Assembly (NCBI GenBank): GCA_000092065.1
Contig: CP000588.1
Direction: 5' to 3' (one strand)
Origin: Ostreococcus lucimarinus
Lineage: Eukaryota
DNA: 64,000 nt
The number at the start of each line of letters is the position of its first letter. Within the stretch, counting starts at the first letter, position 1. A program made the translations under genes and the position numbers. Of this stretch, positions 45,010 to 62,906 are shown piece by piece. Under the pieces are notes generated by a model. The model searched no databases, was not told the origin of the DNA, and was given only the letters and a program-made list of their open reading frames with translations.

Positions 45010-48000
45010 CTACTCGTCGGCGGGTTTGGCGGATTGCACGCGCATGGCGGGCTTGGATAATAAGCGACCGGTGCCGCGGCGTATACCCTCGAGCTCGGCG
45101 CGATGTTTGCCTGTGATTGGTTTCGCGCGCTCGCCCGCGGGTGGGCTGGTGTCGAAACGCATGTGCTTGTTCGGTCGCGCGAGCGATGGGCTCGACGGCG
45201 GTTCGTCGGCGTTGACATCACTCAAGATGCGCCGTGCTGTGCCCATGGTTCCCGGTGTCTTCCCAGGAGTGCGACCTGCTAATGGTCGCTTCACCGCGGG
45301 CGTGCGCGCGGTCGTCTTCGAGACGCTCGGTGGCGGTTCGATGCCCTTGAGTTGTGCGATTTCAGTCTTGGCCGCGTGCAAGGCGACTTCGAGAGACTCA
45401 ATGCGCGATCGCGCGGTGGAGTACTTGCTCCTCGTAGCCTGCGAAGACTTGTTTGCTTCATCAACGTCGTGCATGAGCGCCGTGACCTTGGCCTCCATCT
45501 CTTGCGCGCGTTCTTCCGCTCGCTTGCGAGCCGCCTTGGCGGAGTCCAAACGCGCATCCGATTTCGCGTGCGCGTCACCATCTGCGGTCGCGTTGTCGTT
45601 CGCGGCGAGCTTTCGCTCCAACTTTGCAATTTCTGCGTCCTTGAGTTCCATTTCCTCGTGTAGCTTACGAATTTGAGCTTGTGCGGTCCCTGCGGCGGAG
45701 AACTCAGCCGACGCAGCAGATTTCGCTCGCGAAATCTCTTCTCGCGCCGCAGCGAGTTTCTTTTCGGCGTTTCGAATGTCCGCTGCGAAAGCTGAGCTCA
45801 ACAGGCTCTTCTGCTCTTCTAACGCGACGGAATGTTCTTCGACCAGCTCGGTGCGCACGGCGTCTTCTGTCTCTGCACGCGCCCTTCTCATCTCAGCGAG
45901 CTCGTTTTCGAGATCTGTGATTTGAGACTTGTACTCGCGCTCTAATTCCTCCATCGTCTTCGTGTGCTCTTCGTTCAACGCCGCCAACTCATTGGCGTGC
46001 GCGTCCGCTGCCGACGTCGACTCTGTTTGTTCGAGCGCGTTCGCGAGACGTGCTTCCACGTCCGCCATGGCCTCTGCGTGCTTGCGCTCGAGTGCCTCCA
46101 AGGCTTCCGCCTGCGCGGCGTTTATCTTCTCAATCTGTTCCGAGAACGCTTGCGCTTGCGCCGCGAGTTTCGACGTGTGCGCGTCTACAAGCTCGACTTT
46201 CGCATTCGCCATCTCTTCGCGTAACGCGTCCATTGCCCGAGTGTGGCCCTCCTTGAGCGCATCGATCGCACGAGTGTGCTCTGCTCGCGCCGTCGCAGAC
46301 TCACCCGCGAATTTCGACTCGAGTTCGCCCGCTTGTTTCTCCAAAGCCGCCTCGTGCGCTGCACGCTCGACTTCGAATCCCCCCTCCACGTCGAATTTTA
46401 CACTCGCGAGCGCTTCTTCGTGTTTGCGCGCAAGAACCTGCAGTTCGGCGACGTGCGCAGTCTTAAGCTCGGCCATCGCCGCTTCGCCCGCCTCAGTCGC
46501 GGCGCCTACGGCAGCTTCGAATTCAGCTCGTTTCTTCTCCAGCTCGCAGTCGTGCTCAGCCTTTTGAGCGCTCAGCGCTGAATCTATTTTGCATTGCATC
46601 GTTTCCAACTCCGCCTTGGCCGCCGCGAGCGCGTTGGTCGTTTCTTCGTACGACGAGTTCGCACCCGCCGCCTTGGCTTCGGCGAGCTCGACGCGCGCCT
46701 CGAGCTCGGCTCTATCCTTGTCAGCTTGCACCTTGTGCGCCGCGAGCACTTCGAGCTTCGAAAACATCTCTTCCATCACTTCTTTGTTCTCTTCAAACGT
46801 CGCTTGAACGCGTGCGCGGTCGGCTTCCGCAGATTCCTTGGCCATCTTGTGCTCGTTCTCCAAAACTTCCGCCGCGAGTTGCGCCGCGCGAACGTTTTCC
46901 GCAGTCTCTTCGCTCGCCAACGCGCGACGCTCGGCGGCATCGGCAGCGGCTTGGAGAACTTGATTTTGCGCCTCGATGTCATCCAATGATTTCAAGGCAG
47001 CCGCTTTTTCGTCGAGCGCTTTGGCCGTAAGTTCGCCCTCAGCGATGACGAGCTTGCGCAAATCCTTCAATTCCTCCTCGGCGGTGGCTAAACGTCCGCG
47101 ATTGGCGGAGCGCTCATTCTCGGCTTGAAGGCGATCGGCGCGCTCTTGCAACGCCGCGAGTTCGATGCGGACGCGAACGACCTCGGGTGGGTGTTCGTTC
47201 TGCTTTCGAAGCTCTTCAATCTCCGCATTCACCGACTCTGGCGTTAACTCTTTGCGCTTGAGCGCCTCGTCGCGTAAACGAATCACCATCTTGGCGGATT
47301 GCAAATTCTTGTCCAAACACGTGCATAAATCCTTGGCGTGCTCGAGTTTGCTCTTCAGCTTCGCGAGCTCTTCTTCGCTATCCTTTGCCGCAGCCGCGGC
47401 CGCGCGATTCGCCTTCGCCATGATGGCTTCGAGTTCGACAATCTTCGCTCGAGCGTCGACGTCGTTCAAGCCGCCGCCACCCTCGGCGAGGAGCGCTCGC
47501 AAACGCCCAACCTCAGCCGCGAGCTCGTTCGCTGATCCGACGGATTCTTCGTTCGCCACTGCGCGGACTTTCACAAGCTTGGCGCGCTGGGCGAATTTCA
47601 GCGTAGACATTGTCTCCTCCACGTTCACATGCGCCGGCGAGACGCACGCGAGGAGCGTGCAGCGCGCGCGTCCGCCGAGCGCGTCCTTGAGCAAAAACGT
47701 CAACTTGGAATCGCGGTAGGGCACGTGTCGTTCCTTGCCGTCGGCCACGTCCACGAGGGCTTTGATGACGTTCCCGAGCGCGCTGAGCGATTTATTAATC
47801 GCGCTCGCCTCTTTCAAACGTTCACCTGCCGCGTCCGTGCTCTTCTGCCGCTCGCTCCCTGCGAGATCGACCAAGTGCAAAAGCGCGCTCTTTTTTGTCG
47901 TCGGCGCCGTGGGATGCGCCTTCGTGCGCGATTCCACCGAAATCGTGAACACGCTGTGCGAACGCGAAGAATCGGCATTCATATTCGTCTGACCCACCCT

Positions 48001-48741
48001 ACGATTCGCCGCACCGCGCAAAAACGTCTCGTACGTCTGCTCCGCCCCGTGCACGCGCTCCTCGTGCAAATTCTCCACAAACGTGCCTCGCTTGGCGTCT
48101 TCCCGCACGTTCGGCGCCGGTCCATCGTGCTCGGTATTCATCAACAAATCTCGCAACGTCTCGTTATAAATCTCCAAATACGAGCACTTCACTTCGATTT
48201 CGCACGCCCCGCCCGCTTCGATTGCCGCGTTCCTCGCCGACTCGCATCGCTCAAACAATCGCTTCAGCGCGCGCGGAATCAACCCCGCGTTCGGCGCGTC
48301 CAGCGCGTCCCCCTCCGCCCCTCCCGCCTCGCCCGGCGACATCATGACGCAATCATCGTCACCCTCAAACCCTCCGACGTCGTCGTCGCGATCTAAATCC
48401 ACGCCTTGCATCGAGTACGTCTTCCCCGCGCCCGTCTGCCCGTACGCGAGCACGCACCCGTGATACCCCTCCACCACGCCGTCCACCGCGTCGCGTCCGA
48501 CGCGTTCGAAAATCTCCTCCTGCGCCGACGACTGATCGCACACGTGGTCGTACGCGAAACTCAGCGCCGCCTTGCCCGCGACGCTCTCGCGGACGCTCCC
48601 GCGCTGGAGCGTCAGCGCGTTCGTCCCGTGCGTCTGCACGCACGGCGCGTAGCCGGCATCGATCTCTCTCGCGTTCGGCGGTCGCACGCGCACGAGCACG
48701 CGCACGGTGTCGTGGACGTCTCGCTCGACGTCGTGCGTCAT
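45010..48741 (-). CDS. kinesin-like protein with an N-terminal motor domain and a very long coiled-coil stalk
   Basis: The motor motifs are ...VRVLVRVRPPN..., P-loop ...AYGQTGAGKTYSM..., switch I ...NADSSRSHSVFTI..., switch II ...LVDLAGSERQ... and ...HVPYRDSKLTFLLKDALGG.... The frame is open to 49056 (track start). The ATG at 48741 (MTHDVERDVHDTVRVLV...) sits about 13 aa before the motor and is used here. Alternative ATGs lie at 48846 and 49056. Confidence 0.9.
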   Translation of the reverse strand: MTHDVERDVHDTVRVLVRVRPPNAREIDAGYAPCVQTHGTNALTLQRGSVRESVAGKAALSFAYDHVCDQSSAQEEIFERVGRDAVDGVVEGYHGCVLAYGQTGAGKTYSMQGVDLDRDDDVGGFEGDDDCVMMSPGEAGGAEGDALDAPNAGLIPRALKRLFERCESARNAAIEAGGACEIEVKCSYLEIYNETLRDLLMNTEHDGPAPNVREDAKRGTFVENLHEERVHGAEQTYETFLRGAANRRVGQTNMNADSSRSHSVFTISVESRTKAHPTAPTTKKSALLHLVDLAGSERQKSTDAAGERLKEASAINKSLSALGNVIKALVDVADGKERHVPYRDSKLTFLLKDALGGRARCTLLACVSPAHVNVEETMSTLKFAQRAKLVKVRAVANEESVGSANELAAEVGRLRALLAEGGGGLNDVDARAKIVELEAIMAKANRAAAAAAKDSEEELAKLKSKLEHAKDLCTCLDKNLQSAKMVIRLRDEALKRKELTPESVNAEIEELRKQNEHPPEVVRVRIELAALQERADRLQAENERSANRGRLATAEEELKDLRKLVIAEGELTAKALDEKAAALKSLDDIEAQNQVLQAAADAAERRALASEETAENVRAAQLAAEVLENEHKMAKESAEADRARVQATFEENKEVMEEMFSKLEVLAAHKVQADKDRAELEARVELAEAKAAGANSSYEETTNALAAAKAELETMQCKIDSALSAQKAEHDCELEKKRAEFEAAVGAATEAGEAAMAELKTAHVAELQVLARKHEEALASVKFDVEGGFEVERAAHEAALEKQAGELESKFAGESATARAEHTRAIDALKEGHTRAMDALREEMANAKVELVDAHTSKLAAQAQAFSEQIEKINAAQAEALEALERKHAEAMADVEARLANALEQTESTSAADAHANELAALNEEHTKTMEELEREYKSQITDLENELAEMRRARAETEDAVRTELVEEHSVALEEQKSLLSSAFAADIRNAEKKLAAAREEISRAKSAASAEFSAAGTAQAQIRKLHEEMELKDAEIAKLERKLAANDNATADGDAHAKSDARLDSAKAARKRAEERAQEMEAKVTALMHDVDEANKSSQATRSKYSTARSRIESLEVALHAAKTEIAQLKGIEPPPSVSKTTARTPAVKRPLAGRTPGKTPGTMGTARRILSDVNADEPPSSPSLARPNKHMRFDTSPPAGERAKPITGKHRAELEGIRRGTGRLLSKPAMRVQSAKPADE

Positions 48742-48912
48742 CGCCTCGCGCGGTGCGCGCGCGCCGAGGGCGAGGCGCGTCGACGTGTGCGGCGATGCCG
48801 ACGCCGAGGGGAACGAAGCGGAACTTAAACCGACTTTTTTCCTCATTCCCCTCGTCGAACGGCGCGCGTCCCGCACTCCGACGCGCGACGAGCTCGACGA
48901 CGACCGAGAAAG

Positions 48913-49350
48913 ATGTTGGGTAAAACGCTCAAGTTCCAAGCGCTCGTCATCGCGCTCGTCGCGGTGTCGTGCGTGATCGAAGACGGCGCGCAGGCGATCG
49001 CGAAGAAGATTACGCGATGCGTCGTGCGCGACTTTACGTTGGCGACGGTGTCGCACATCGCCGCGGGAGCGGCGAGTTCGACGAAGAAAGCGTTGGCGAA
49101 GGTAATGTTACTTATGCATGCGTTCTCCCTGTTCGACGTGTACGTGCGCGGGAGCTCGTGCTGCCCGACGAAGCTCATGGCGGCGCAGGCGTGCGCCGGC
49201 GCGCTCGCGTACGGGTTGTACGGCGGCGCGTTACCGATCCCGAAGATCGGTGGTGGTAAGAAGAAGTCGGCCAAGAAGTCGTCGTCTTCAGCCAAGAAGG
49301 CGACGCCCAAGCGTGCGAGCTCGAGATCGAGCTCGAGATCGCGAAAGTGA
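48913..49350 (+). CDS. possible small secreted or surface protein (145 aa): signal-peptide-like N-terminus, Cys-containing core, Lys/Ser-rich tail
   Basis: A real ATG gives MLGKTLKFQALVIALVAVSCVIEDG.... The tail is ...GGGKKKSAKKSSSSAKKATPKRASSRSSSRSRK. The ORF overlaps the upstream extension of the kinesin frame on the opposite strand, so the two are mutually exclusive only if the kinesin starts at 49056. Confidence 0.3.
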   Translation: MLGKTLKFQALVIALVAVSCVIEDGAQAIAKKITRCVVRDFTLATVSHIAAGAASSTKKALAKVMLLMHAFSLFDVYVRGSSCCPTKLMAAQACAGALAYGLYGGALPIPKIGGGKKKSAKKSSSSAKKATPKRASSRSSSRSRK

Positions 49351-50635: not shown

Positions 50636-51913
50636 TCAGTCGGCGAAGACGGATTGCAAGCTCGGGAAAGGATCCGCCTTGGACAACACCAAGACGCGGT
50701 TCTTGTGCGATATGTAGCCCTTGATGAACTTTCTAAAGATCAAGTTGGCGACGATGCACTCGACCTCGTCGAGATCGACGTCGTCGGCGCCGCACCACGC
50801 GAGGGCGGTTTGGAATTTGGCGAGCGAGACTTGGTTCGCCTTCGCCGCGTCGGCGGTTTCGCCGTGAATGGCGTGCACTTTCTTGAACAGCGTGCGGTAG
50901 ACGGACATGCGAAGCTTTTCGAGGATCAGATACGTGCCCTGTTTGATGAAAGTCGATTCACCGTCGCTGAGGGCGGCGTCGAGCGTGCGCGCGTCGCCGC
51001 GGCGCATCGCCTCGACGACGTCGACAAACTCTCGCAACTCGTACTTCTCCAGTAACTTTCGCGACGGCAGCGTGCCTAAAATCAACTTCACCGGGATCAA
51101 GTACTGCAAAATCAATCGCACGTTCCGCGCGCTCTGCGCGTGACAATGCGCGAACGCGTACTCAAGATGCTCCGCCGCGCGCTCGTACGCGTCCTCGAAC
51201 ACCGCCAACCGCCCGACGTAAAAGTTATACGTCACCTTTTCCGACTTTGGGAACGAATCGAACGGCAAAAACGTCGGCAAGTTCACGGCGTTGATCAAGT
51301 TCTTGCACAAATGCAGCGCGTTGAGCTTGAAGTACACCTTGAATAGATTATTCACCACGTGCAACTGCGGCGCCTTCTTCTCCGCCGTCGACGTCTGCGA
51401 CACCGCTCTGTACACCAGCATCAGCGTCGACCCGGCGTCGGCGAGTTTGCTCGGTTTTTCCCCCCCGCGCTTCAGCGCCTCATCCGCGCGCTGCGCCAAC
51501 GCTCTCGCGTCGTCCACCGCGACGTACCACGCCTCGCTCGTCCACGCCGAGTCCTCGTCCGCCCTGTACGCCTTCACGAAATCCTTCACCCCTCTCGCGT
51601 GCGCCTCGTACGCGCGCACCGCGTCCTCGTCCCTCCCGCTTCCCGCCAGCGTCCGCGCGCACGCGAACGCCCCCATCGCGTCGTCCCACGGCGCGCGCAC
51701 GCCTCGCTCGCGCATCAGCGTCGCCGCGCGGTCGCAATCCGAACCGCACGCGCGCGTCCACGTCGCGTCGTCCTCGTCGCGCTCGCGCGTCGTCGACGCG
51801 CCGGCGTCGACGCACGACGCGAGCGCGCGTCCATCGCGTCGCGCGATCGCGTCTCGACACCGCGCCGCGCGCGCGTCCATGCTCGCGCCGGCGTGTGCGC
51901 CGCGCGCGTCCAT
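50636..51913 (-). CDS. PCID2: PCI-domain protein PCID2/Thp1 (TREX-2 / CSN12-like)
   Basis: ...QLHVVNNLFKVYFKLNALHLCKNLINAV...VTYNFYVGRLAVFEDAYERAAEHLEYAFAHCH...RLILQYLIPVKLILGTLP...IKGYISHKNRVLVLSKADPFP aligns with human PCID2 ([27 protein letters not shown] / [32 protein letters not shown] / [21 protein letters not shown]). The ATG at 51913 is in a short duplicated MDAR segment, so the start could also be about 51880. Confidence 0.8.
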   Translation of the reverse strand: MDARGAHAGASMDARAARCRDAIARRDGRALASCVDAGASTTRERDEDDATWTRACGSDCDRAATLMRERGVRAPWDDAMGAFACARTLAGSGRDEDAVRAYEAHARGVKDFVKAYRADEDSAWTSEAWYVAVDDARALAQRADEALKRGGEKPSKLADAGSTLMLVYRAVSQTSTAEKKAPQLHVVNNLFKVYFKLNALHLCKNLINAVNLPTFLPFDSFPKSEKVTYNFYVGRLAVFEDAYERAAEHLEYAFAHCHAQSARNVRLILQYLIPVKLILGTLPSRKLLEKYELREFVDVVEAMRRGDARTLDAALSDGESTFIKQGTYLILEKLRMSVYRTLFKKVHAIHGETADAAKANQVSLAKFQTALAWCGADDVDLDEVECIVANLIFRKFIKGYISHKNRVLVLSKADPFPSLQSVFAD

Positions 51914-52284: not shown

Positions 52285-52400
52285 ACGACGCGAGCGGCGA
52301 TGACGACGACGATGACGACGATGACGACGACGATGACGGCGCGCGCGACGACGACGACGCGCGCGCGAACGACGACGACGACGACGACGACGCGGGCGGC
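52285..52400. repeat. (ACG/ATG)n trinucleotide microsatellite at the 5' end of the NADP-MDH ORF, encoding a poly-Thr/Met/Ala tract
   Basis: GACGACGACGATGACGACGATGACGACGACGATGACGG...AACGACGACGACGACGACGACGACGCGG is translated in the MDH frame as [13 protein letters not shown]...TTTTTTTT. Confidence 0.85.
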
Positions 52401-53625
52401 GATAGGTCGACGACGCGCGCGCGAACCGAACGCGCGACGACGCGGAGACGCGTGCGTGCGGTACAACACGCCCGCGGGCGTGGGGAGGAAGGCGGACGAT
52501 CCTCTGGGGGTGTTCAGGCTGGAGTACGACATCTCGATGGACGAGGCGCATCGACCGAAGACGTGGAAGCCGACGGTCACGGTGGCGGTGAGCGGCGCGG
52601 CGGGGCAGATTTCGAATCACTTGTTGTTTAAGATCGCGAGTGGGTCGGTGTTCGGACACGATCAGCCGGTGGTGTTGAGATTGCTCGGGAGCGAGCGGTC
52701 GAGACAGGCGCTGGAGGGGGTGGCGATGGAGCTGGAGGATTGCTTGTTTCCGTTGTTGCGCGAGGTCGACATCGGCATCGACTGCAGGAAAGTCTTCGCG
52801 GGCGCGGATTGGGCGCTGTTGATCGGGGCGAAGCCGCGTGGACCGGGGATGGAGCGCGGAGATTTGCTTGAGATGAATGGGGCGATTTTCGTCGATCAAG
52901 GCAAGGCGTTGAACGAGGTGGCGAAGCCGACGTGCAAGGTCATCGTCGTCGGGAACCCTTGCAACACGAACGCGCTCATCGCGCTGTCGCACGCGCCCAA
53001 CTTGGATCCGCGCAACTTCCACGCGTTGACCAAGCTCGACGAAAACAGAGCAAAGTGTCAACTCGCGCTCAAGGCGGGCGTGTTCTACGAAACCGTGAGT
53101 AACGTCGTCATTTGGGGCAACCACTCCACGACGCAGGTGCCGGATTTCGTCAACGCCAAGATCGACGGTAAGAAAGCCACCGAAGTCATCACCGATCAAG
53201 ACTGGCTCGAGAACGACTTCACTCCCGCGATTCAAACCCGCGGCGGGTTGCTGATCAAAAAGTGGGGTCGCTCTTCCGCGGCGTCCACGGCGGTGTCCAT
53301 CGCCGATCACATCAGAAATTTGGTCAACCCGACGCCGGAGGGCGACTGGTTCTCCACAGCCGTGCTCAGTAACGGTAACCCGTACGGCATCCAAGACGGC
53401 ATCGTTTACTCCTTCCCGTGCCGCTCCAAGGGCGATGGTTCGTACGAAATCGTTCCCGGTTTAGAAGTGAACGACTGGCTTCGCGAGCGCATGAAGAAGA
53501 GCGAAGAAGAGCTCACCAGCGAAAAGGGCTGCGTCGGCCACCTCGTCGGGGAAGCGCACGTTGACGTCCCAGACGCAGGGTGCCCGGTCGATCTCGAAGA
53601 CACTCTTTTGCCAGGTGAAATGTAA
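52300..53625 (+). CDS. MDH: NADP-dependent malate dehydrogenase (chloroplast type) with a C-terminal regulatory extension
   Basis: ...[67 protein letters not shown] matches plant NADP-MDH nearly residue for residue. The C-terminal extension ...[34 protein letters not shown] carries the two regulatory Cys. The N-terminus contains a poly-Thr/Met run encoded by an (ACG)n repeat, and the exact start is uncertain. Confidence 0.88.
53620..53624 (+). promoter_or_regulatory. TGTAA putative polyadenylation signal overlapping the MDH stop codon (green-algal type signal)
   Basis: TGTAA pentamers recur within about 0-50 nt downstream of several stop codons here. ABC-F has one at about 36966..36970 on the plus strand. 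NadB and POLA1 have them on the minus strand (plus-strand TTACA at about 518..522 for POLA1). Chlorophyte nuclear genes are known to use TGTAA rather than AATAAA. Confidence 0.4.
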
Positions 53626-53959
53626 GCGGCACACGCGAGCAGATGAAAAGAGTCCCGTTGACTCGTGCGCTCGCTCGACGCAACTTACGCATATTGAATC
53701 AAAACCACATCGTTGCATAACCATTTCAATAACATCAATATTCTGGTATAATAACCAACGCGACCACTGCGCGCGCCGACGAGAAAATTCGCCGCGTTCA
53801 CCGTCGGCGGCGAGGCGCACGGGGTGGGCGAGGTGCGAAGACGATGCGTCGCTCGGAGAGGCTTCGTTTGATTATGGTTAATACAACTCGGAAGATTTGA
53901 AAAAATAATTTGAACTCGAGCGCGTTTCCGCGAGTGAAACGACTTGAGTTAGTGTCGGT

Positions 53960-54799
53960 TTAGTTTAAAGGTTTACGGCAGACGAAGACGCCCCACGCGA
54001 AGACGCCGTGATCGCGTTGAGTGTCCGCGCGCTCGGTGAGCGACTCGAGCCAATTGTCGAGGTACTTATCCGTCAAACCCTTGGAGAGCATCTCTTCGCG
54101 ATGGGTGTGAATCTGCTTGATCATGTCGCGGAAATACGTTTCCAAGTGATTGCTGCCGTCCCACCACGTGACGTAATCCAGTCCGGCATCCTTCATGCAC
54201 TGCAGGTACGTGGACGGGCGACCCATCACCGTGGTGGCGTTGCGATCGGTGAATCCCTTGAGGGTCTTTTCATCGGCGCCGTCGGCACCCATGATGTCCG
54301 AAAACACGAACGCGGCGCCCGGCTTCAACACGCGCGCGACTTCTTTGAATAATTCGGGCTTATCGCCGGCGTGGCACAACACCTCGCACGACCACGCGCC
54401 GTCGAACGAATTCGTCCAATCCGCCGGAAACGGCTTGTTAATGTCCCCGACGACCGCGTCGACGAGATCGCCCAGGCCGAGCTCCTTCGCCTTGGCGATG
54501 TTCTGCGCGTTTTGTCCCGGTCCAATGTTATATCCCATCACCGAGCATCCGTACTTCTTCGCCAACGCGTGCGATCCGCCGCCGTGCCCGCTTCCGATGT
54601 CCAGCAACTTATCCCCCGCCCCGATCGGTCGCGCCATGTCCAACTGCGTCATCATCCACGCCGTCGTCGCCGCGCTCGACTCGCGCACCCCATCTTTCGC
54701 GTCTCTGTAGATACCAAAGTGAATATCGTCACCACCACCGCCCATGACGATCGTGTAAAACAGTCGCTGCTCGGCTTCGTCGTACTGCTCGAGCACCAT
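53960..54799 (-). CDS. class I SAM-dependent N-methyltransferase of the glycine-sarcosine / sarcosine-dimethylglycine methyltransferase (GSMT/SDMT) type
   Basis: The track ORF starts at a GTG (54808). The real ATG is 3 codons in, giving MVLEQYDEAEQRLFYTIVMGGGGDDIHFGIYRD.... That block mirrors the GSMT/SDMT N-terminal signature FYxxVWGGEDIHxGLY. The SAM-binding motif I is LLDIGSGHGGGSHALAKKYGC, and the post-I/II motifs are ...VVGDINKPFP...FDGAWSCEVLCHAGDKPELFKEVARVLKPGAAFVFSDIM. The total is about 279 aa, like SDMT. Confidence 0.75.
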   Translation of the reverse strand: MVLEQYDEAEQRLFYTIVMGGGGDDIHFGIYRDAKDGVRESSAATTAWMMTQLDMARPIGAGDKLLDIGSGHGGGSHALAKKYGCSVMGYNIGPGQNAQNIAKAKELGLGDLVDAVVGDINKPFPADWTNSFDGAWSCEVLCHAGDKPELFKEVARVLKPGAAFVFSDIMGADGADEKTLKGFTDRNATTVMGRPSTYLQCMKDAGLDYVTWWDGSNHLETYFRDMIKQIHTHREEMLSKGLTDKYLDNWLESLTERADTQRDHGVFAWGVFVCRKPLN

Positions 54800-55094
54800 C
54801 TTCCCCACCTCCTCCTTGTCGAACTGTTTCCCGACGAAATCAGCCTGCGAATCGCGCGACGCGATCGTTCGTCAGTCTCGCTTCGCGCGCGCGTCGTCGT
54901 CGTCGTCCTCCGCGCCGTCGCGCGCCGCCGAAGCGTCGCGACGTCGCGACGTCCCGATCGCCGTCGTCGCCGTCGGTTTATCCGGCGCTCGCGTCGCGCG
55001 CGCGTCGCGTCGGCGCGCGCGCGTCGCGTCGGCGCGTCGCGCGCGCGCACCATGATGCGCGTTCGCCGTCTCGGTCGCGATCGAGCGCGTCGCG

Positions 55095-56081
55095 GTGTGC
55101 GCGCGCGACGCGACGCTTCGCTTCGGTCGTCACAATCGACCGCGACGGTTCGCGACGCGGCGACGCCGCGCGACGCCGCGCGAGCCTCGCGCGCGCGCGC
55201 GGCGACGACGACCGCGACGCATGAGCGTGCGCGCGCGCGCGGCGGCGTTCGCCGCGGGAACGGCGCGACCGATCGACGGCGACGCGCCGGCGACGCGCGA
55301 GGACGCGCGCGCGCGAAACGCGACGAGGACGACGACGACGACGACGACGACGCGCGACGACGCGACGACGGAGGGCTCGGGGACGCGCGTCGACGCGTCG
55401 ACGGCGCGCGCGCGAGGCGCGGCGACGCGCGAGGAAGGCGCGAGCGGGACGCGCGGCGACGCCGCGCGGTTCGAGCGCGCGTTTGAAAAGGCGTGCGACG
55501 CGTTGGCGCTCGCGCGGGCGATCGAGGCGACGGTGCGACGGGAAACGGTTTGGACGGGACGAAGCTCGGCGCGCGAGCGCGCGCGGGCGAGATCGTTGGC
55601 GGCGGAGCGGGCGTACGAAGCCGTCGCGGAGCGACCCGGCGTAACCGTCGACGCGAAGCGCGACGAACGCGCGAGGCCGGCGTCGAGCGGTCGAACGACG
55701 GCGACGGCGCGCGAGGAGGAAGATACGTCGATGAGTGTCGTGCGGTCGTTTTCGTTCGCGCGGGACGAGGTCGACGGTGACGATGGCGACGTCGGCGACG
55801 CGGACGCCGACGAAGACGAACCGTCGCGAGAGGCGTTCGAGGACGACGGCGGCGAATCAGGCGCGCTGCGCGAGATCGCGCGCGCGCGTCGCGAGATCGC
55901 GAGCTTACTCGCCGACTCTCGGAGCGACGCCGCGCGCGGCCGTCCACGACGCCTCGACGCGGAGACGCCCGCGGAGACGCGAACCGTCGCCTCGCCGAAT
56001 CGCCGCGTCGAAAAAACCATCGTCATGGATCGAATCGCCATGATCGACGGCATCTTAGCCGCGCTCGCGGAGGATCGATGA
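55095..56081 (+). CDS. possible low-complexity (Arg/Ala/Asp/Thr-rich) protein; strand and reality uncertain
   Basis: ATG start. The C-terminal part (...FERAFEKACDALALARAIEATVRRETVW...IVMDRIAMIDGILAALAEDR) is protein-like. The ORF fills the gap between the divergent methyltransferase start and the convergent BSD2-like gene end. The competing minus-strand ORFs (54652..55947, 55130..56218) are Arg-rich with no domain signal. Confidence 0.2.
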   Translation: MCARDATLRFGRHNRPRRFATRRRRATPREPRARARRRRPRRMSVRARAAAFAAGTARPIDGDAPATREDARARNATRTTTTTTTTRDDATTEGSGTRVDASTARARGAATREEGASGTRGDAARFERAFEKACDALALARAIEATVRRETVWTGRSSARERARARSLAAERAYEAVAERPGVTVDAKRDERARPASSGRTTATAREEEDTSMSVVRSFSFARDEVDGDDGDVGDADADEDEPSREAFEDDGGESGALREIARARREIASLLADSRSDAARGRPRRLDAETPAETRTVASPNRRVEKTIVMDRIAMIDGILAALAEDR

Positions 56082-56221: not shown

Positions 56222-56632
56222 TCAGTCCTCTCCCATGCGAAACCCGATCGGGTCTCGATGCGCCCCCGTTCCCAGGCAATCCATGCACACGCTTCGTCCC
56301 GAGCCTCGGCAGTCGACGCACCATCGCGGCCACGCGCCGCGCGCCTGCACCTCGCCGTCCCGTCTCGCGTTCTCCCGCCCTCGCGCCTCGCACCGCGCGC
56401 ACGCCCGCGTCCCGAATCCATCGCACGCCGCGCACGTCCTCTTACCCTCGGGCGTCGCCCGCGCGCGCTCGAACGCGCGCGGGCGCGCCCACGTCGACGC
56501 GTCGTCGTCGTCGTCGCTCGCGGCGCGCGGCGTCGCGCGCGGACGCGCACCGCGCGGCGTCGCGCGCGCGCGGCGACCGGCGACCGGCGCGGCGACGACG
56601 ACGGCGCGCGGCGCCGCGCGCGACGTCGCCAT
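56222..56632 (-). CDS. small chloroplast-type DnaJ-like zinc-finger protein with four CxxCxGxG repeats (BSD2-like Rubisco-assembly-factor architecture)
   Basis: The last 136 codons of the otherwise spurious 710-aa ORF 56222..58354 start at an in-frame ATG (cat 56630..56632). The sequence is MATSRAAPRAVVVAAPVAGRRARATPRGARPRATPRAASDDDDDASTWARPRAFERARATPEGKRTCAACDGFGTRACARCEARGRENARRDGEVQARGAWPRWCVDCRGSGRSVCMDCLGTGAHRDPIGFRMGED. It has two pairs of CxxCxGxG-x3-CxxCxGxG separated by about 20 aa, as in BSD2, preceded by an Ala/Arg-rich presequence. Confidence 0.55.
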   Translation of the reverse strand: MATSRAAPRAVVVAAPVAGRRARATPRGARPRATPRAASDDDDDASTWARPRAFERARATPEGKRTCAACDGFGTRACARCEARGRENARRDGEVQARGAWPRWCVDCRGSGRSVCMDCLGTGAHRDPIGFRMGED

Positions 56633-56744
56633 GCGCGTCGACGCGCGCGCGCGGTGCGCGTCTCCGCGCGCGACGACCACTGGCGACATCACAACACGGC
56701 GCGCGCGCGAACGCGGACGAACGCGCGCGCGGCGCGCGGACGCG

Positions 56745-57554
56745 ATGCGCGGACGAGCGATGCGCGCGTGCGCGGAGACGATCGGCGCGATGCGCCGCGG
56801 CGCGACGCGCGCGGAACGCGGCGCGATCGGACGGTGGTTGATTTCGAGCCGCGATGACGATCGAAGCGCTGGCGCGACGCGCGAGCGCGCGAACGCGCTC
56901 GAGACGCGACCGCGGACGTACGCCAACGCGTCGCGAGCGTTCGGGGCGTCGCGCACGGTGGAACAGTGGAGCGAACTCGCGGAACGGGGGGTGGACGTGA
57001 ATCCGTGCAATAGCCCGAAACACCCGGCGGCGCTGGCGGGAGTGCAGACGGCGTTCGACGCCGGACGCACGCGAAGGAGCCTGCAGGAGGCGTATGATCC
57101 GCATTGTATCGATTTCGTGTGCGGACGCGCGCACGACACGGCGGGGAAGATTGGATTGGTGTCGTATCGATGCGAAAACGAGGAAAACGTGCTCGAGTCG
57201 CACTTGAAGTTTCCGTCGCAGTACGAAGAGTTTCCAGGAATCATCGGACCGGCGATGTACGGCGTCGCGGCGAGCGCGCATGGAAATTGGGCGGCGTCGA
57301 TCGCGCTGATGGACCGCGCGATCCTACCGAGACCGCCGTTGGTGGCGGTGAAATCGCTCGCGGTGAGCGTCGTCGACTTGGTCGGTCCGGGCGAGCCCTT
57401 GACGTTACGATCGCGATTGCTCGAGGTCGAGGACGCGCGCGAACCGTTCCGCGTCGTCGTCGAGATCGAGATCAAATCCAAAGCCACGTCAAAAGTCGTC
57501 GCTCGAGCGGAGTGTTCGTACGAAAAAATCGGCGCCGTGCGTTCGATGCGGTGA
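56745..57554 (+). CDS. hotdog-fold (thioesterase/dehydratase-like) protein with an organellar presequence
   Basis: Track ORF 56235..57554 is Arg-rich junk up to about 56740. From the ATG at 56745 (MRGRAMRACAETIGAMRRG...) a presequence leads into ...VDVNPCNSPKHPAALAGVQ...HCIDFVCGRAHDTAGKIGLVSYRCENEENVLESHLKFPSQYEEFPGIIGPAMYGVAASAHGNWAASIALMD...VVVEIEIKSKATSKVVARAECSY. This has the central-helix and long-beta-sheet layout of 4HBT/PaaI-type hotdog proteins. Confidence 0.45.
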   Translation: MRGRAMRACAETIGAMRRGATRAERGAIGRWLISSRDDDRSAGATRERANALETRPRTYANASRAFGASRTVEQWSELAERGVDVNPCNSPKHPAALAGVQTAFDAGRTRRSLQEAYDPHCIDFVCGRAHDTAGKIGLVSYRCENEENVLESHLKFPSQYEEFPGIIGPAMYGVAASAHGNWAASIALMDRAILPRPPLVAVKSLAVSVVDLVGPGEPLTLRSRLLEVEDAREPFRVVVEIEIKSKATSKVVARAECSYEKIGAVRSMR

Positions 57555-57863
57555 TATCGTCCAACGCTCTTCGCTCGCCGCGGCGACGCCCGAGCCCCGA
57601 CTTCGACCTTCCCCGATCCCGCGCGATTCCCTTTCACCGTTTTGTACGCTGTTGTACCGTGTATAGCCGTCATCATGTAGTTTAGAGCAGCACGCACGCT
57701 CACGCTCGCCGGTTCGCCGACGCCCTCGCGCCGCTCTCGGGAAACCCTTTCACCCTTGGACCATCGCGCCTCCTGCCAGCACACGCGCGCGCGCACGACC
57801 GTCCTCGACGCGTCCCGCGCGCACGTGGACACGCGCACATCGTCGACGTCGACCGCGCGCGCG

Positions 57864-60800
57864 ATGCCGCACGCCGTCGGCGCGCCGCGCGGCGCCGCCG
57901 CCGCGATCGGGACGAAAAGGTGGGCGAACGACCATCGACGCGACGTCGCGCGAGCTGGACGCGTTTCGCGCGCCGCGGGACGACGCGCGAGCGCGTCGAA
58001 CTCGGTGACGTCCGTGGACGTGCGCGCGCGCGCGCGCGCTGGGGCGGTGCGACGGAACGGTGGAGACGCGCGCGACGTCGCGGCGGCGGCGGCGAGCGAC
58101 GAAGCGGCGACGGAGCGAGCGGGCGCCGCGGCGCGCGAGGGGGTCGTCGCGAAGGCTGGTAAGAGCACCGTGAACGTCACGAACGCTGGACCGAGCTTGG
58201 AGAGCATTCTGCGATCGAAGAGCGGGTTTACGAAGATTTTGTGCGCGAACCGCGGAGAGATCGCGGTTCGAGTGTTTCGAGCGGGGACCGAGTTGGGGAT
58301 GCAAACCGTGGCGGTGTTCGCCGAAGCCGATCGACAGTCGACGCATAGGTACAAATCCGATGAATCGTACGAGGTCGGTCACGGCAAGGCGCCGGTGGCG
58401 GCGTATTTGGATTACGAATCCATCATTCGCTGCGCCAAGGAGAACGGGGCGCAGGCTATTCATCCGGGCTACGGATTTTTGAGCGAAAACGCCGCCTTTG
58501 CGCGACGATGCGAGGAAGAAGGGATCGTGATGATCGGGCCGAAGTCGCAAACGTTGACGGAGATGGGCGATAAGGTGATCGCCAAGGCGAAAGCGAAGGA
58601 GTGTGGGTTGCCGCTCGTGCCGGGGACTGAAGAGGCGACGGCGGACGTCAACGATGCCTTGGAATTCGCCAAGGAGTTCGGAATGCCAATCATGCTCAAG
58701 GCCGCGATGGGCGGTGGTGGTCGCGGTATGCGTGTTGTCAAGGAGTACTCCGAGCTCGAAGATGCGTTCAAGCGCGCTTCGAGCGAGGCACAGACTGCGT
58801 TCGGCGACGGGAGAATGTTTTTGGAACGTTACGTCGAGGCGCCGCGACACATCGAGGTGCAAATTCTAGCCGACAACTACGGTAACGTCGTTCACTTGGG
58901 CGAGCGCGATTGTTCCGTGCAACGTCGTCACCAAAAAGTTGTCGAGTTGGCGCCCGCGCCCAACCTTGACCCAGTGCTTCGCCAAAGATTATTTGACGAC
59001 GCCGTGGCGCTCGCCAAGCATGTCAACTATCGCAACGCCGGCACGGTGGAGTTCATGGTTGATAAGCAAGGGCGTCACTATTTTTTGGAAGTGAACCCGC
59101 GCATCCAAGTAGAACACACTGTGACGGAAGAAGTCACTGGGATCGATTTGGTGCAATCGCAGATATTGATCGCAGGTGGTCAAAAGTTGTCCGACATCGG
59201 TATCAAGTCCCAAGACGACATTCAGCTTCGCGGCTTCGCGATGCAGTGCAGAATCACCACCGAAGACCCGTCCATGAACTTCTCTCCGGATTTCGGCAAA
59301 GTTGAGGTCTACCGTCCTCCGGGCGGTATGGGTGTGCGTTTGGATGGTGAAGTCGTGGTCGGTTCGCGAGTGTCACCCAACTACGATTCGCTCCTCGTCA
59401 AGCTCACGTGCTCGGAGAAGAACTTTGAAGCAACCGTGCAAAAGATGTATCGATCGCTCAATGAATTCCGTATTCGCGGCGTGAAGACAAACATTCCGTT
59501 CCTGATGAACGTTTTGTCCAGCGAAACGTTCTTGAGCGCGAACTTTGCCACGGACTTTATCGATAGCACTCCGAGCTTGTTCAAGTTGGACTCGTACATC
59601 GATGACACGCAGAAGCTTCTCAATTACCTCGGTGACGTTGCCGTGAACGGTTCGTCGCACCCTGGTGCGGTCGGTCCCGCGCCGACGTGCGCGGAACCGC
59701 CAGTTCCCGAACCGAAGAAGTCTTTAGCGCAGCTCAAGGACACCGGGTTCAAGGCTATTTTGGACAAGGAGGGTCCGGCGGCGTTCGCCAAAGCGGTTCG
59801 CCAGCACAAGGGCTTGCTCATCATGGATACGACGTGGCGGGACGCGCACCAGTCGCTCTTGGCGACGCGCGTGCGGACGCACGACCTTCGTCGTTCGGCA
59901 CCACTCACGCGAAGCGCCCTCAGTGGCGCGTATTCGCTTGAGATGTGGGGTGGCGCCACCTTCGACGTCGCGCTTCGATTCTTGCAAGAGGATCCGTGGA
60001 GGCGACTCGAGCTTCTTCGTGAGCAAGTGCCAAACATCCCATTTCAAATGCTTCTTCGCGGCGCCAACGCGGTCGGTTATACTTCGTACGCGGACAACGT
60101 CGTGCAAAGCTTCGTGCACCAAGCGCGCAAGTCTGGTATCGATGTTTTCCGCGTTTTTGACTCGCTCAACTACGAAGATAACCTCATGTTTGGCATCGAC
60201 GCCGTGCGCAACGCCGACGGCGTCGTTGAAGCGACAATTTGCTACACTGGTGACGTGAGCGATCCGAAGAAGACTAAATATACGCTGGACTATTATGTCG
60301 ACCTCACGACCAAGCTCGTTGAGCACGGTATTGATGTGCTCGCCGTGAAGGACATGGCTGGTTTGTTGAAGCCGCGCGCCGCGACGATGTTGATCTCCGC
60401 CATTCGCGCCAAGTTTCCCGACTTGCCCATCCATGTGCACACCCACGACACCGCTTCAACGGGCGTGGCTTCCATGCTCGCTGCTGCCGCGGCAGGTGCG
60501 GATGTTGTCGATGTGTGCATGGACGCCATGGCTGGCACGACGTCCCAACCCGCCATCGGCGCCGTGATCAACTCAGTCGCGGGCACCGAGCTCGACACCG
60601 GATTGGATATCGATGAAGTGCTCAAGCTCAACTTGTTCTGGGAACAAACGAGAGGTCTGTACTCTCCGTACGAGAGCGGTATTAAAAGCGGAAGCTCAGA
60701 TGTGTACATTCACGAGATGCCCGGTGGTCAATACACCAACTTGAAGTTCCAAGCGTACGCCAACGGACTCGGAAGCGAATGGGATCGCATCAAGGATTCG

Positions 60801-61697
60801 TACGCGACGGCGAATAAGATCTTGGGTGACATCGTGAAGGTGACGCCGTCTTCCAAGGTCGTCGGTGATTTCGCGCAATTTCTCGTCGCGAACAACCTGG
60901 ATGAGCACTCCGTGGTGGAAAAAGCTGACACGTTGTCCTTCCCGACTTCCGTCGTCGAGTACTTCCAAGGATACCTGGGCCAACCCGTCGGTGGCTTCCC
61001 CGAACCGCTTCGCTCGCGAGTGGTGAAGAACAAGGAAATCATCGCCGGTCGTCCTGGGGCGTCGCTTCCCAGCATGGACATCAACAAGTTACAAAACGAG
61101 CTGTCCATCAAGCACACCGGCCGTCGATCGATCACGCACAAGGATGCGCTCGCGGCGGCTTTGTACCCGAAGGTGTTCGACGAGTACGTCGTGAAGCGCG
61201 ACACCGTCGGGCCGGTCGGTTTGCTCCCGACCAAGGCGTTCTTGAAGGGATTGGACATCGATGAAGAGATCGAAGTCACCACCGATCGCGGTGTGAGCAC
61301 GAACATCAAGCTTAAGGCTGTCGGTGAGCTGTTGCCAAGCGGCAACCGCGAAGTGTTCTTTGAAGTCAACGCGATTCCGCGCGTCGTCGAGATCCACGAC
61401 AGAAAGATTCTCGAGAGCGCCTCCAAGGGCGGCGGCGGCGCAGTCGCTCGCGAGAAGAGCGATCCACTCGACCCGGGCTCGGTCGGCGCCCCGATGTCAG
61501 GGTCCGTCGTCGAAGTCCTCGTCGCTCCCGGTCAAAAGATTAAAGCGGGCGAGCCCATCGTCGTGTTGAGCGCGATGAAGATGGAAACGACCGTCGCTTC
61601 TCCCGTCGCCGGCACCCTCAAGCACGTCGGCGTCGTCAAAGGCGACACGTGCGCCGCCGGCGATTTAATGTGCGCCATCGACGTCGACGCCGCGTAA
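57864..61697 (+). CDS. PC: pyruvate carboxylase (biotin carboxylase, carboxyltransferase and biotinyl domains)
   Basis: The biotin-carboxylase ATP-grasp region is ...FTKILCANRGEIAVRVFRA...EVNPRIQVEHTVTEE.... The carboxyltransferase TIM barrel is ...IMDTTWRDAHQSLLATRVRT...VHTHDTASTGVA.... The C-terminal biotinyl domain has ...VVLSAMKMETTVASPVAGT.... The track ORF starts at a TTG (57756). The first ATG, at 57864, is used here, and a presequence follows. Confidence 0.95.
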   Translation: MPHAVGAPRGAAAAIGTKRWANDHRRDVARAGRVSRAAGRRASASNSVTSVDVRARARAGAVRRNGGDARDVAAAAASDEAATERAGAAAREGVVAKAGKSTVNVTNAGPSLESILRSKSGFTKILCANRGEIAVRVFRAGTELGMQTVAVFAEADRQSTHRYKSDESYEVGHGKAPVAAYLDYESIIRCAKENGAQAIHPGYGFLSENAAFARRCEEEGIVMIGPKSQTLTEMGDKVIAKAKAKECGLPLVPGTEEATADVNDALEFAKEFGMPIMLKAAMGGGGRGMRVVKEYSELEDAFKRASSEAQTAFGDGRMFLERYVEAPRHIEVQILADNYGNVVHLGERDCSVQRRHQKVVELAPAPNLDPVLRQRLFDDAVALAKHVNYRNAGTVEFMVDKQGRHYFLEVNPRIQVEHTVTEEVTGIDLVQSQILIAGGQKLSDIGIKSQDDIQLRGFAMQCRITTEDPSMNFSPDFGKVEVYRPPGGMGVRLDGEVVVGSRVSPNYDSLLVKLTCSEKNFEATVQKMYRSLNEFRIRGVKTNIPFLMNVLSSETFLSANFATDFIDSTPSLFKLDSYIDDTQKLLNYLGDVAVNGSSHPGAVGPAPTCAEPPVPEPKKSLAQLKDTGFKAILDKEGPAAFAKAVRQHKGLLIMDTTWRDAHQSLLATRVRTHDLRRSAPLTRSALSGAYSLEMWGGATFDVALRFLQEDPWRRLELLREQVPNIPFQMLLRGANAVGYTSYADNVVQSFVHQARKSGIDVFRVFDSLNYEDNLMFGIDAVRNADGVVEATICYTGDVSDPKKTKYTLDYYVDLTTKLVEHGIDVLAVKDMAGLLKPRAATMLISAIRAKFPDLPIHVHTHDTASTGVASMLAAAAAGADVVDVCMDAMAGTTSQPAIGAVINSVAGTELDTGLDIDEVLKLNLFWEQTRGLYSPYESGIKSGSSDVYIHEMPGGQYTNLKFQAYANGLGSEWDRIKDSYATANKILGDIVKVTPSSKVVGDFAQFLVANNLDEHSVVEKADTLSFPTSVVEYFQGYLGQPVGGFPEPLRSRVVKNKEIIAGRPGASLPSMDINKLQNELSIKHTGRRSITHKDALAAALYPKVFDEYVVKRDTVGPVGLLPTKAFLKGLDIDEEIEVTTDRGVSTNIKLKAVGELLPSGNREVFFEVNAIPRVVEIHDRKILESASKGGGGAVAREKSDPLDPGSVGAPMSGSVVEVLVAPGQKIKAGEPIVVLSAMKMETTVASPVAGTLKHVGVVKGDTCAAGDLMCAIDVDAA

Positions 61698-61773: not shown

Positions 61774-62654
61774 ATGCGTCGCGCGTCTCTCGCGTGCGCG
61801 CATCTCGCTCGACTTCGCGCCGCACACGCGCGAAGCGCGTCCGTCGTCTTCGGAGCGTCGTCGTCATCCGAGACGCCGTCGAGCGCGCGCGCCGCGCGCG
61901 CGAATTCATCCGCCGCCATGCCCGAAGCCGACGCGACAAAAACGACGAACGACGGCGATCTGGACGCGCGCGCGACGGCGGCGCACGCGGCATCGACGTC
62001 TGCGACGCTCCCGCGCGAGTTTCGATTCCGTGCGGTGAACGACGACGCGGACGAACCACCGCACGAAGCGCGCCGCGCGCCCCCGGGGGCGACGGCGAAG
62101 GCGAGAGGGTTTGCGTTCTTCGAGGCGCTCGGGAATCCCCGATACCACGTCGCGCCCATGGTCGATCAGAGCGAACTCGCGTTTCGAGAGTTGTGTAAAC
62201 GATACGGGGCGACGCTGGGATACACGCCGATGATACACGCTCGTTTGTTCGTGGAGTCTCCAAAGTATCGACGGGAGATTTTTAGCACGTCGACGCGCGA
62301 CAGGCCGTTGTTGGCACAGTTTTGCGCGAACGATCCCGAGATATTGCTTCGCGCGGCGACCATGATCGCACCGTATTGCGATGGGGTTGATATTAATTTT
62401 GGATGTCCGCAAAGAATCGCGAAAAGAGGGAACTATGGGGCGTTTTTGATGGACGATTGGAAGACGGTGGAGGCGTTGATTCGTAAACTCGATGAAGAGT
62501 TGCCCGTGCCCGTCACGGCGAAGATTCGCGTGTACGATGACTTAGAGACAACGTTGAAGTACGCCAAGATGGTTGAAGCTGCCGGGGCACAGATTGTTGC
62601 CGTGCACGGACGAACGCGCGAGCAGAAGCGATGCGCTGACATTCGAGCGAATTG
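61774..62654 (+). CDS. DUS1: tRNA-dihydrouridine synthase (Dus1-like), exon 1
   Basis: ATG start. ...PRYHVAPMVDQSELAFRELCKRYGATLGYTPMIHARLF...LLAQFCANDPEILLRAATMIAPYCDGVDINFGCPQRIAKRGNYGAFLMDDW...VPVTAKIRVYDDLETTLKYAKMVEAAGAQIVAVHGRTREQK... carries the Dus signature CPQ...G.G.....W....K.R.... The exon ends ...AAT TG|GTAAGT (the donor shares the G of the Trp codon). Confidence 0.85.
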
Positions 62655-62906
62655 GTAAGTCATTCGGTGCAAATGCACCGCTTACGTGATTTTTCTTTCC
62701 ACTCGCGATTCTCACGACTTGGCGGTTCCGGTGACGACAAAACATAAAAATACACCATAGATCTGTTCCGAACAAATCTTGACGACAAAAACATGCACCA
62801 CTAACTGAGGAACCGCCGCGAGTATCGTGACTTTTTTACGTGGCGACAACGTCCGCGAATCGCGCGACGCCGATATTGACCGAATGTTTTCCTTCTTCCT
62901 TCGCAG
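62655..62906 (+). other. spliceosomal intron of the Dus gene (GTAAGT...CGCAG, phase 2)
   Basis: An in-frame stop follows immediately after the Trp codon. A GTAAGT donor, a pyrimidine-rich tract plus CAG acceptor, and restoration of the conserved Dus alignment across the junction all support the intron. Confidence 0.75.

Follow-up and report, generated by a model that had tools for sequence, protein, structure and literature searches.

The minus-strand gene at 53856..55098 of the 64-kb stretch of Ostreococcus lucimarinus DNA analysed here (the window) very probably encodes DSYE of clade B, the chlorophyte type, a predicted 295-residue class I SAM-dependent S-methyltransferase for 4-methylthio-2-hydroxybutyrate (MTHB) whose activity is assigned from that of its orthologues. 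This identification is based on how closely the protein matches catalogued and tested DSYEs, on its place in a phylogeny and on its fold and gene structure; that this exact protein shares the activity of its orthologues, and which of its residues bind substrate, we infer. The feature is real and expressed, and had been misread in a first-pass annotation as a sarcosine/dimethylglycine N-methyltransferase (SDMT) of the betaine pathway, a misreading explained by the homology of the DSYE and SDMT families. The gene is already known: it is the Ostreococcus DSYE published in 2024, bar one residue in that paper's table.

DSYE is the eukaryotic single-domain homologue of bacterial DsyG, an AdoMet-dependent MTHB S-methyltransferase ('MSM'; Wang et al. 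2024, Nat Microbiol, PMC11306096). Five DSYE clades have been defined, clade B occurring in chlorophytes including Ostreococcus, Micromonas, Bathycoccus and Tetraselmis, and all ten of the DSYEs tested from the five clades were active as MTHB S-methyltransferases in E. coli, including the two clade-B enzymes assayed, from Tetraselmis and of Bathycoccus type ('O. prasinos') (PMC11306096). The spliced product of the window gene is identical at 294 of 295 positions to 'Ostreococcus lucimarinus clade-A BCC118000 MMETSP0939_6123', which Supplementary Table 3a of that study lists as a DSYE, with one DSYE copy and no copies of DSYB or TpMMT (PMC11306096); the single difference is M218 here and V there. 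Length, the MADFV..KQF N-terminus and the invariant residues all agree with clade B. Pairwise comparison against the FASTA of tested proteins from PMC11306096 gave 72.4% identity over 293 residues to the purified clade-B 'O. prasinos BCC99000' DSYE, 57% to the Tetraselmis DSYE and 49–55% to the tested DSYEs of clades A, C, D and E, so that the nine tested enzymes other than the purified clade-B protein span 49–57% over alignments of about 276–293 residues. Identity is 35–38% to bacterial DsyG domains and 30% to the SDMT of Galdieria sulphuraria. The headline of the first-pass annotation, a glycine betaine-type GSMT/SDMT, is therefore contradicted by near-identity to a catalogued DSYE and by 72% identity to a purified DSYE against 30% to SDMT, although its hedge that the substrate might be a sulfonium precursor named what, on the DSYE identification, would be the right one.

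Transcripts define a gene that is longer than its genomic open reading frame. As first described, a minus-strand frame occupies 53960..54808 and yields 282 residues from a GTG, or 279 residues from the ATG three codons on, at 54799; the two strings quoted from it, RLFYTIVMGGGGDDIHFGIYRD and LLDIGSGHGGGSHALAKKYGC, are present in the protein. The proposal that this ATG is the true start is contradicted by the transcripts, which put the start at 55053-55051, upstream across a 206-nt intron. Six independent transcript contigs from six different sequencing runs and samples (L001–L006), each 100% identical to the window, align in two blocks, 55098/55100..55050 and 54845..53856/53858, with the junction running from 55050/55051 to 54845/54844, and all six encode a 295-residue database protein (P0001) that was the closest match in our homology search, is 100% identical to the window protein and starts with MADFVGKQFDKEEVGK ahead of MVLEQ.... 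The spliced coding sequence of 888 nt translates into these same 295 residues (MADFVGKQFDKEEVGK followed by MVLEQ...), with the N-terminus MADFVGKQF. In the genomic DNA the codons for ADFVGKQF... immediately precede the GTG in the same frame, with no ATG ahead of them, and an in-frame TGA at 54874-54872, inside the intron, closes the frame upstream of 54844; the genomic frame is thus a truncated view of the DSYE gene. The 16 N-terminal residues beyond the 279-residue form are conserved across the family (F4, Q8, F9, V14, K17 and V18 each in at least 90% of 62 sequences), which makes the ATG at 54799 an internal methionine rather than a start.

The transcribed unit, 53856..55098 on the minus strand, comprises two exons and one intron and gives a mature mRNA of about 1037 nt. 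Exon 1 (55051..55098) carries a 45-nt 5′ untranslated region and, as its sole coding part, the start ATG, so exon 1 of this two-exon transcript ends on the DSYE start codon itself. The intron (54845..55050; 206 nt, 77% G+C), which is a gap in six of six transcripts, is of GT-AG type with a GTGCGC donor and a CAG acceptor, and its sequence contains a CTGAC branch-point-like motif 27 nt upstream of the acceptor. The coding part of exon 2 (53960..54844) holds residues 2–295 and the stop codon (53962-53960) and contains the originally reported frame; it is followed by a 3′ untranslated region of 104 nt (53856..53959) up to the poly(A) site, where L001 passes straight from the base matching 53856 into poly(A). 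At the other end, L001 and L002 retain, immediately ahead of the base matching 55098, a remnant of the template-switch oligo (..GCAGAGTACGGGG), an indication that transcription of the DSYE gene starts there. The translated transcript reads ..RPRRRTRIM|ADFVGKQF, and the translation of its 5′ untranslated region also matches the O. lucimarinus transcript MMETSP0939 in the published table. Gene calls that are based on open reading frames or made in the prokaryotic manner lose 16 conserved residues, since exon 1 contributes nothing to the coding sequence but its terminal start codon. Our description of an intron behind the start codon, a minor point of annotation, comes from the transcripts, and we found no discussion of it in PMC11306096.

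Domain and fold analyses place the protein in a broad enzyme superfamily. Pfam Methyltransf_11 (E 2e-16) and five other class I methyltransferase models, including Methyltransf_25 and Methyltransf_31, match the window protein, the domains spanning residues about 59–210 of the 279-residue form, and such matches, far stronger than chance would give, mark it as a genuine class I SAM methyltransferase. The top NCBIfam model is the SDMT model NF041675 (145.8 bits, E 2.4e-42 for the open reading frame; 146.4 bits, E 1.5e-42 in a second scoring), and the best sequence match in the PDB is 2o57, the Galdieria sulphuraria SDMT (E 8.5e-32; McCoy et al. 2009). Modelling with AlphaFold2 on a family alignment of 62 sequences (pLDDT 90.5, pTM 0.89) predicted a single-domain class I methyltransferase fold, for which Foldseek again returned 2o57 as the closest solved structure (TM 0.82–0.91, rmsd 2.3–2.9 Å, 28–30% identity). 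The next matches were TleD, AtmM, MitM, RebM, PEAMT and GPP methyltransferase, the top matches all being class I methyltransferases, and neither the sequence comparison nor the fold comparison with the PDB brought up a solved structure of DSYE or DsyG. The family-level resemblance to SDMT reported at first is therefore real. It also accounts for the names in public pipelines, which call many family members 'sarcosine/dimethylglycine N-methyltransferase' because SDMT is the closest structurally characterized relative.

Homology searches recovered hundreds of relatives in marine eukaryotic phytoplankton. Ostreococcus tauri CEG01383.1 falls in the same 90%-identity cluster as the window protein; other relatives include Micromonas commoda XP_002502991.1 and proteins of Tetraselmis and Cymbomonas, with those of diatoms, Pavlovales and pelagophytes at 50–57% identity. 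One homologue cluster holds Nitzschia inconspicua KAG7362955.1, which appears in Wang et al. 2024 (PMC11306096) as a clade-E DSYE whose function was tested.

To place the protein among these families we computed a distance-based neighbour-joining tree of 32 sequences with 300 bootstraps, in which the SDMT relatives came from a database search seeded with the Galdieria SDMT and SDMT was the only outgroup, the verified bacterial GSMT/SDMT of Aphanothece and Halorhodospira and other methyltransferase families lying outside its sampling. DSYE is monophyletic in 300 of 300 replicates, and within it the chlorophyte clade B that includes the window protein (282/300), a Mamiellales group (294/300) and the pair formed by the window protein and O. 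tauri (300/300) are all recovered. A long internal branch, likewise present in 300 of 300 replicates, parts DSYE and DsyG from 11 SDMT or SDMT-like proteins (the Galdieria SDMT and ten relatives). The first-pass annotation had itself named placement in a different methyltransferase clade as a result that would count against an SDMT identity, and in every bootstrap the protein groups with DSYEs, apart from the SDMTs. Scores against NF041675 are consistent with the tree: DSYE and DsyG proteins score 144–158 bits, the Galdieria SDMT 259 bits and bacterial SDMT-like proteins 342–404 bits. The window protein, at 146.4 bits, lies below the curated equivalog cut-off of 550 bits for this model; the verified Galdieria SDMT also lies below it, so the cut-off does not discriminate by itself, and we dropped it as a stand-alone membership test and used only the ranking of scores.

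Residue-level comparison separates the two families further. The N-terminal family block FYTIVMGGGGDDIHFGIY (54707..54760, minus strand; residues 30–47) is the DSYE counterpart of FYxxVWGGEDIHVGLY in SDMT, and F30, Y31, V34, M35, G36, G38, G39, D41, I42, H43 and G45 in it are invariant across 62 DSYE-family sequences. This is the block that had been called diagnostic of SDMT. It is homologous, but it is not identical, reading FYxxVMGGGGDDIHFGIY in place of FYxxVWGGEDIHVGLY, with a tryptophan-to-methionine change and a two-residue insertion; the tryptophan that is M in the window protein is present in 10 of 11 SDMTs and the insertion in none of the 11, so that M35 and the G37-G38 insertion set DSYE apart. 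Judged from the alignment, the block is a shared ancestral one in its DSYE form. The SAM-binding motif I, LLDIGSGHGGGSH (54569..54607, minus strand; residues 81–93), corresponds to the first strand and loop of the Rossmann-type fold, where the AlphaFold2 model has strand E80-84, and its D83, G85, G87 and G89 are identical in all 32 DSYE, DsyG and SDMT sequences.

The most conserved family-specific segment is the DSYE signature stretch DIMGADGADEKTLKGFTDRNATT (54230..54298, minus strand; residues 184–206), a candidate lid of the substrate pocket, in which D184, G187, A191, E193, L196, F199, T200, D201, N203 and T205 are invariant among the 62 family members. Across the same 62 members, including the window protein, 40 columns are invariant, and VMGGGGxDIH, SCEVxCH and DIMGADG..FTDRNATT are all present. 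A further comparison picked out 24 columns that are fixed among the DSYEs but have a different SDMT consensus, and in each of the 24 the window protein agrees with the DSYEs. Discriminating columns (DSYE versus SDMT) include M35 versus W, the GG insertion at 37-38, H88 versus Y, H93 versus R, C154-E155-V156-x-C158 versus Q-D-A-x-L, T200/N203/T205 versus the L/I/L that SDMTs carry at aligned positions 200, 203 and 205, and R273 versus W. Which residues line the substrate pocket is a matter of inference only.

The protein can thus be set against four kinds of known enzyme. SDMT (NF041675; 2o57) has the same fold and architecture, the FY..G..DIH.G block and motif I, and Y22, Y31, H43, H159, D184 and Y214 in common with it; it N-methylates an amine, however, whereas DSYE S-methylates a thioether. 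DsyG and DsyGD of Gynuella sunshinyii and Zarconia have a homologous methyltransferase domain, catalyse the same reaction and form the sister group to DSYE in the tree, but DsyGD carries a fused C-terminal DsyD decarboxylase domain and the window protein is single-domain. DSYB/DsyB and TpMMT share the reaction and pathway role of DSYE but are different methyltransferase families, set apart from it in the published treatment (PMC11306096), and are analogues rather than orthologues of DSYE; neither DSYB nor TpMMT has a copy in O. lucimarinus (PMC11306096).

Could the gene nevertheless encode a stand-alone N-methyltransferase of SDMT/GSMT type that converts glycine, sarcosine or dimethylglycine towards glycine betaine? 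Such an enzyme would agree with the top NCBIfam model, with 2o57 as the nearest solved structure in both sequence and fold and with the prevailing pipeline labels, and the assays in PMC11306096 did not include glycine, sarcosine or dimethylglycine as substrates. We nonetheless regard a betaine-pathway role of this kind as highly improbable. The verified SDMT is far more distant than the purified DSYE, the SDMT group is separate in every bootstrap replicate, DSYE and DsyG proteins rank well below both the Galdieria and the bacterial proteins on the SDMT model, and every one of the discriminating columns is in the DSYE state. Two further observations argue in the same direction: tblastn with DSYE, SDMT and DsyG proteins as queries, and with GSMT outside the query set, found no second SDMT- or DsyG-type methyltransferase in the 64-kb window, and exogenous DMSP represses the Micromonas orthologue (PMC13547399). 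That the frame might be no functional gene at all, a chance product of G+C-rich DNA or a pseudogene, was worth considering because the surrounding G+C-rich DNA yields many long spurious reading frames on both strands; spliced, polyadenylated transcripts from six different samples refute it, hundreds of conserved homologues and a confident fold prediction also stand against it, and its probability is negligible.

A subtler question is whether DSYE in Ostreococcus has a main substrate other than MTHB, such as a different thioether or an osmolyte precursor that is a small amine or acid, with MTHB methylation a weak side activity. Purified clade-B 'O. prasinos' DSYE carries out AdoMet-dependent S-methylation of MTHB in vitro, with an optimum at 30 °C and pH 9.0, but is slow, its kcat/Km of 0.15e-3 µM−1 s−1 being about 1,400-fold below that of GsDsyGD (PMC11306096). 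Ostreococcus also accumulates little DMSP: levels in the genus are low, with O. lucimarinus flagged 'Low*' and O. tauri cells containing 0.34 nmol per µg protein (PMC11306096), and the substrate range of DSYE goes unreported in the same study. These points leave some room for a different main substrate, which we consider unlikely given that ten of ten tested DSYEs from five clades methylate MTHB (PMC11306096), that no DMSP methyltransferase other than DSYE is known from O. lucimarinus and the genus contains DMSP, that the M. commoda orthologue responds to DMSP supply (PMC13547399), and that the signature stretch, taken as substrate-facing, is nearly identical to that of DSYEs from high-DMSP pelagophytes and haptophytes. 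The very low kcat/Km for MTHB, the small amounts of DMSP in the genus and the absence of N-substrate assays from PMC11306096 likewise keep a small probability for a promiscuous or re-purposed clade-B DSYE in Ostreococcus whose main product in vivo would be another zwitterionic osmolyte, for example a betaine or a different sulfonium compound.

The surroundings of the gene have no evident link to DMSP. A search for a DsyD-like decarboxylase, by tblastn of the C-terminal domain of GsDsyGD against the 64-kb window, returned only noise (E ≥ 2.8), and tblastn with DSYE, SDMT and DsyG proteins for a companion or paralogous methyltransferase in the same window returned the gene itself alone; eukaryotic genes need not cluster. 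A gene of the LDH/MDH family (malate dehydrogenase) at 52300-53625 is convergent with DSYE. We considered it as a reductase for 4-methylthio-2-oxobutyrate (MTOB), and nothing in the analysis supports that role. The other neighbours, encoding a PCI-domain protein, a kinesin, pyruvate carboxylase and Dus, are unrelated housekeeping genes.

As a DSYE, the protein would act in the transamination route to DMSP, which proceeds from Met through MTOB, MTHB and DMSHB to DMSP. It would bind SAM through its Rossmann-type core and move the SAM methyl group onto the thioether sulfur of MTHB, giving the sulfonium DMSHB and S-adenosylhomocysteine in what would be the committing step towards DMSP; a further algal enzyme would then oxidatively decarboxylate DMSHB to DMSP. 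Expression data from related algae bear on this role. The Micromonas commoda orthologue, annotated as an SDMT, is higher in light and is down-regulated by added DMSP (PMC13547399). In O. tauri, a proteomics preprint reports an 'SDMT', which may be the DSYE orthologue, that is up under nitrogen depletion; if it is this orthologue, the rise would suit a pathway to a nitrogen-free osmolyte.

What this analysis gains is a corrected function and a corrected gene model. It also means that the labels 'sarcosine/dimethylglycine N-methyltransferase' and 'cyclopropane fatty-acyl-phospholipid synthase-like' on members of this algal family are to be read as DSYE. DSYE ranks among the principal algal genes for DMSP, from which the climate-active gas DMS derives; its carriers include picoeukaryotes, Ostreococcus and Micromonas among them, throughout the global ocean.

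Template-switch oligo remnants (..AACGCAGAGTACGGGG) are present at the 5′ ends of two public Logan transcript contigs that align to the window at 100% identity (L001, positions 1-12; L002, positions 1-16). These remnants are adaptor contamination, yet they usefully mark the 5′ end of the DSYE mRNA at window position 55098. The DSYE intron, the DSYE 5′ region and adjoining intergenic or 5′ regions make up two stretches, 54900-55800 and 56250-56850, in which G+C content is 77-81%. Both strands of these stretches carry long overlapping Arg/Ala-rich open reading frames of 300-430 amino acids, none with a Pfam match, and most or all of these frames are probably spurious.

The tail of a small minus-strand reading frame at about 56222-56632 (MATSRAAP...CAACDGFGTRACARC...CVDCRGSGRSVCMDCLGTG...) has an Ala/Arg-rich N terminus of transit-peptide-like appearance and CxxCxGxG repeats. 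Pfam comparison gave weak, sub-threshold scores for BSD2_CRD (23.7 bits; cut-off 27) and DnaJ_CXXCXGXG (19.6 bits; cut-off 32.7), and the frame may encode a plastid DnaJ-type zinc-finger protein.

Convergent with DSYE lies a plus-strand LDH/MDH-family gene (52300-53625; Pfam Ldh_1_N and Ldh_1_C, E = 1e-45), with about 230 nucleotides between its stop codon and the DSYE poly(A) site. Because its reading frame opens with an odd low-complexity stretch rich in Thr, Met, Ala and Arg, translation may actually begin elsewhere, or an intron may be located elsewhere. The protein also has a Cys-containing C-terminal extension, which we take to be reminiscent of redox-regulated chloroplast NADP-MDH. Other genes near DSYE encode a kinesin (45010-49056, minus strand), a PCI-domain/PSMD3-like protein (50636-51913, minus strand), a pyruvate carboxylase with biotin carboxylase, HMGL-like, PYC_OADA and biotinyl domains (57756-61697, plus strand) and a dihydrouridine synthase fragment (61774-62658, plus strand); none of these four shows an obvious tie to DMSP metabolism.

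Among database protein clusters recovered by homology search with the DSYE protein (P0135, P0139 and P0141-P0148), none of the names on family members is 'DSYE'; they appear instead as 'sarcosine/dimethylglycine N-methyltransferase', 'cyclopropane fatty-acyl-phospholipid synthase-like methyltransferase' or 'Methyltransferase type 11'. Many public gene calls in these clusters, on genomic or metagenomic contigs, give a truncated DSYE of 278-279 amino acids, because gene callers overlooked the intron at the start codon.
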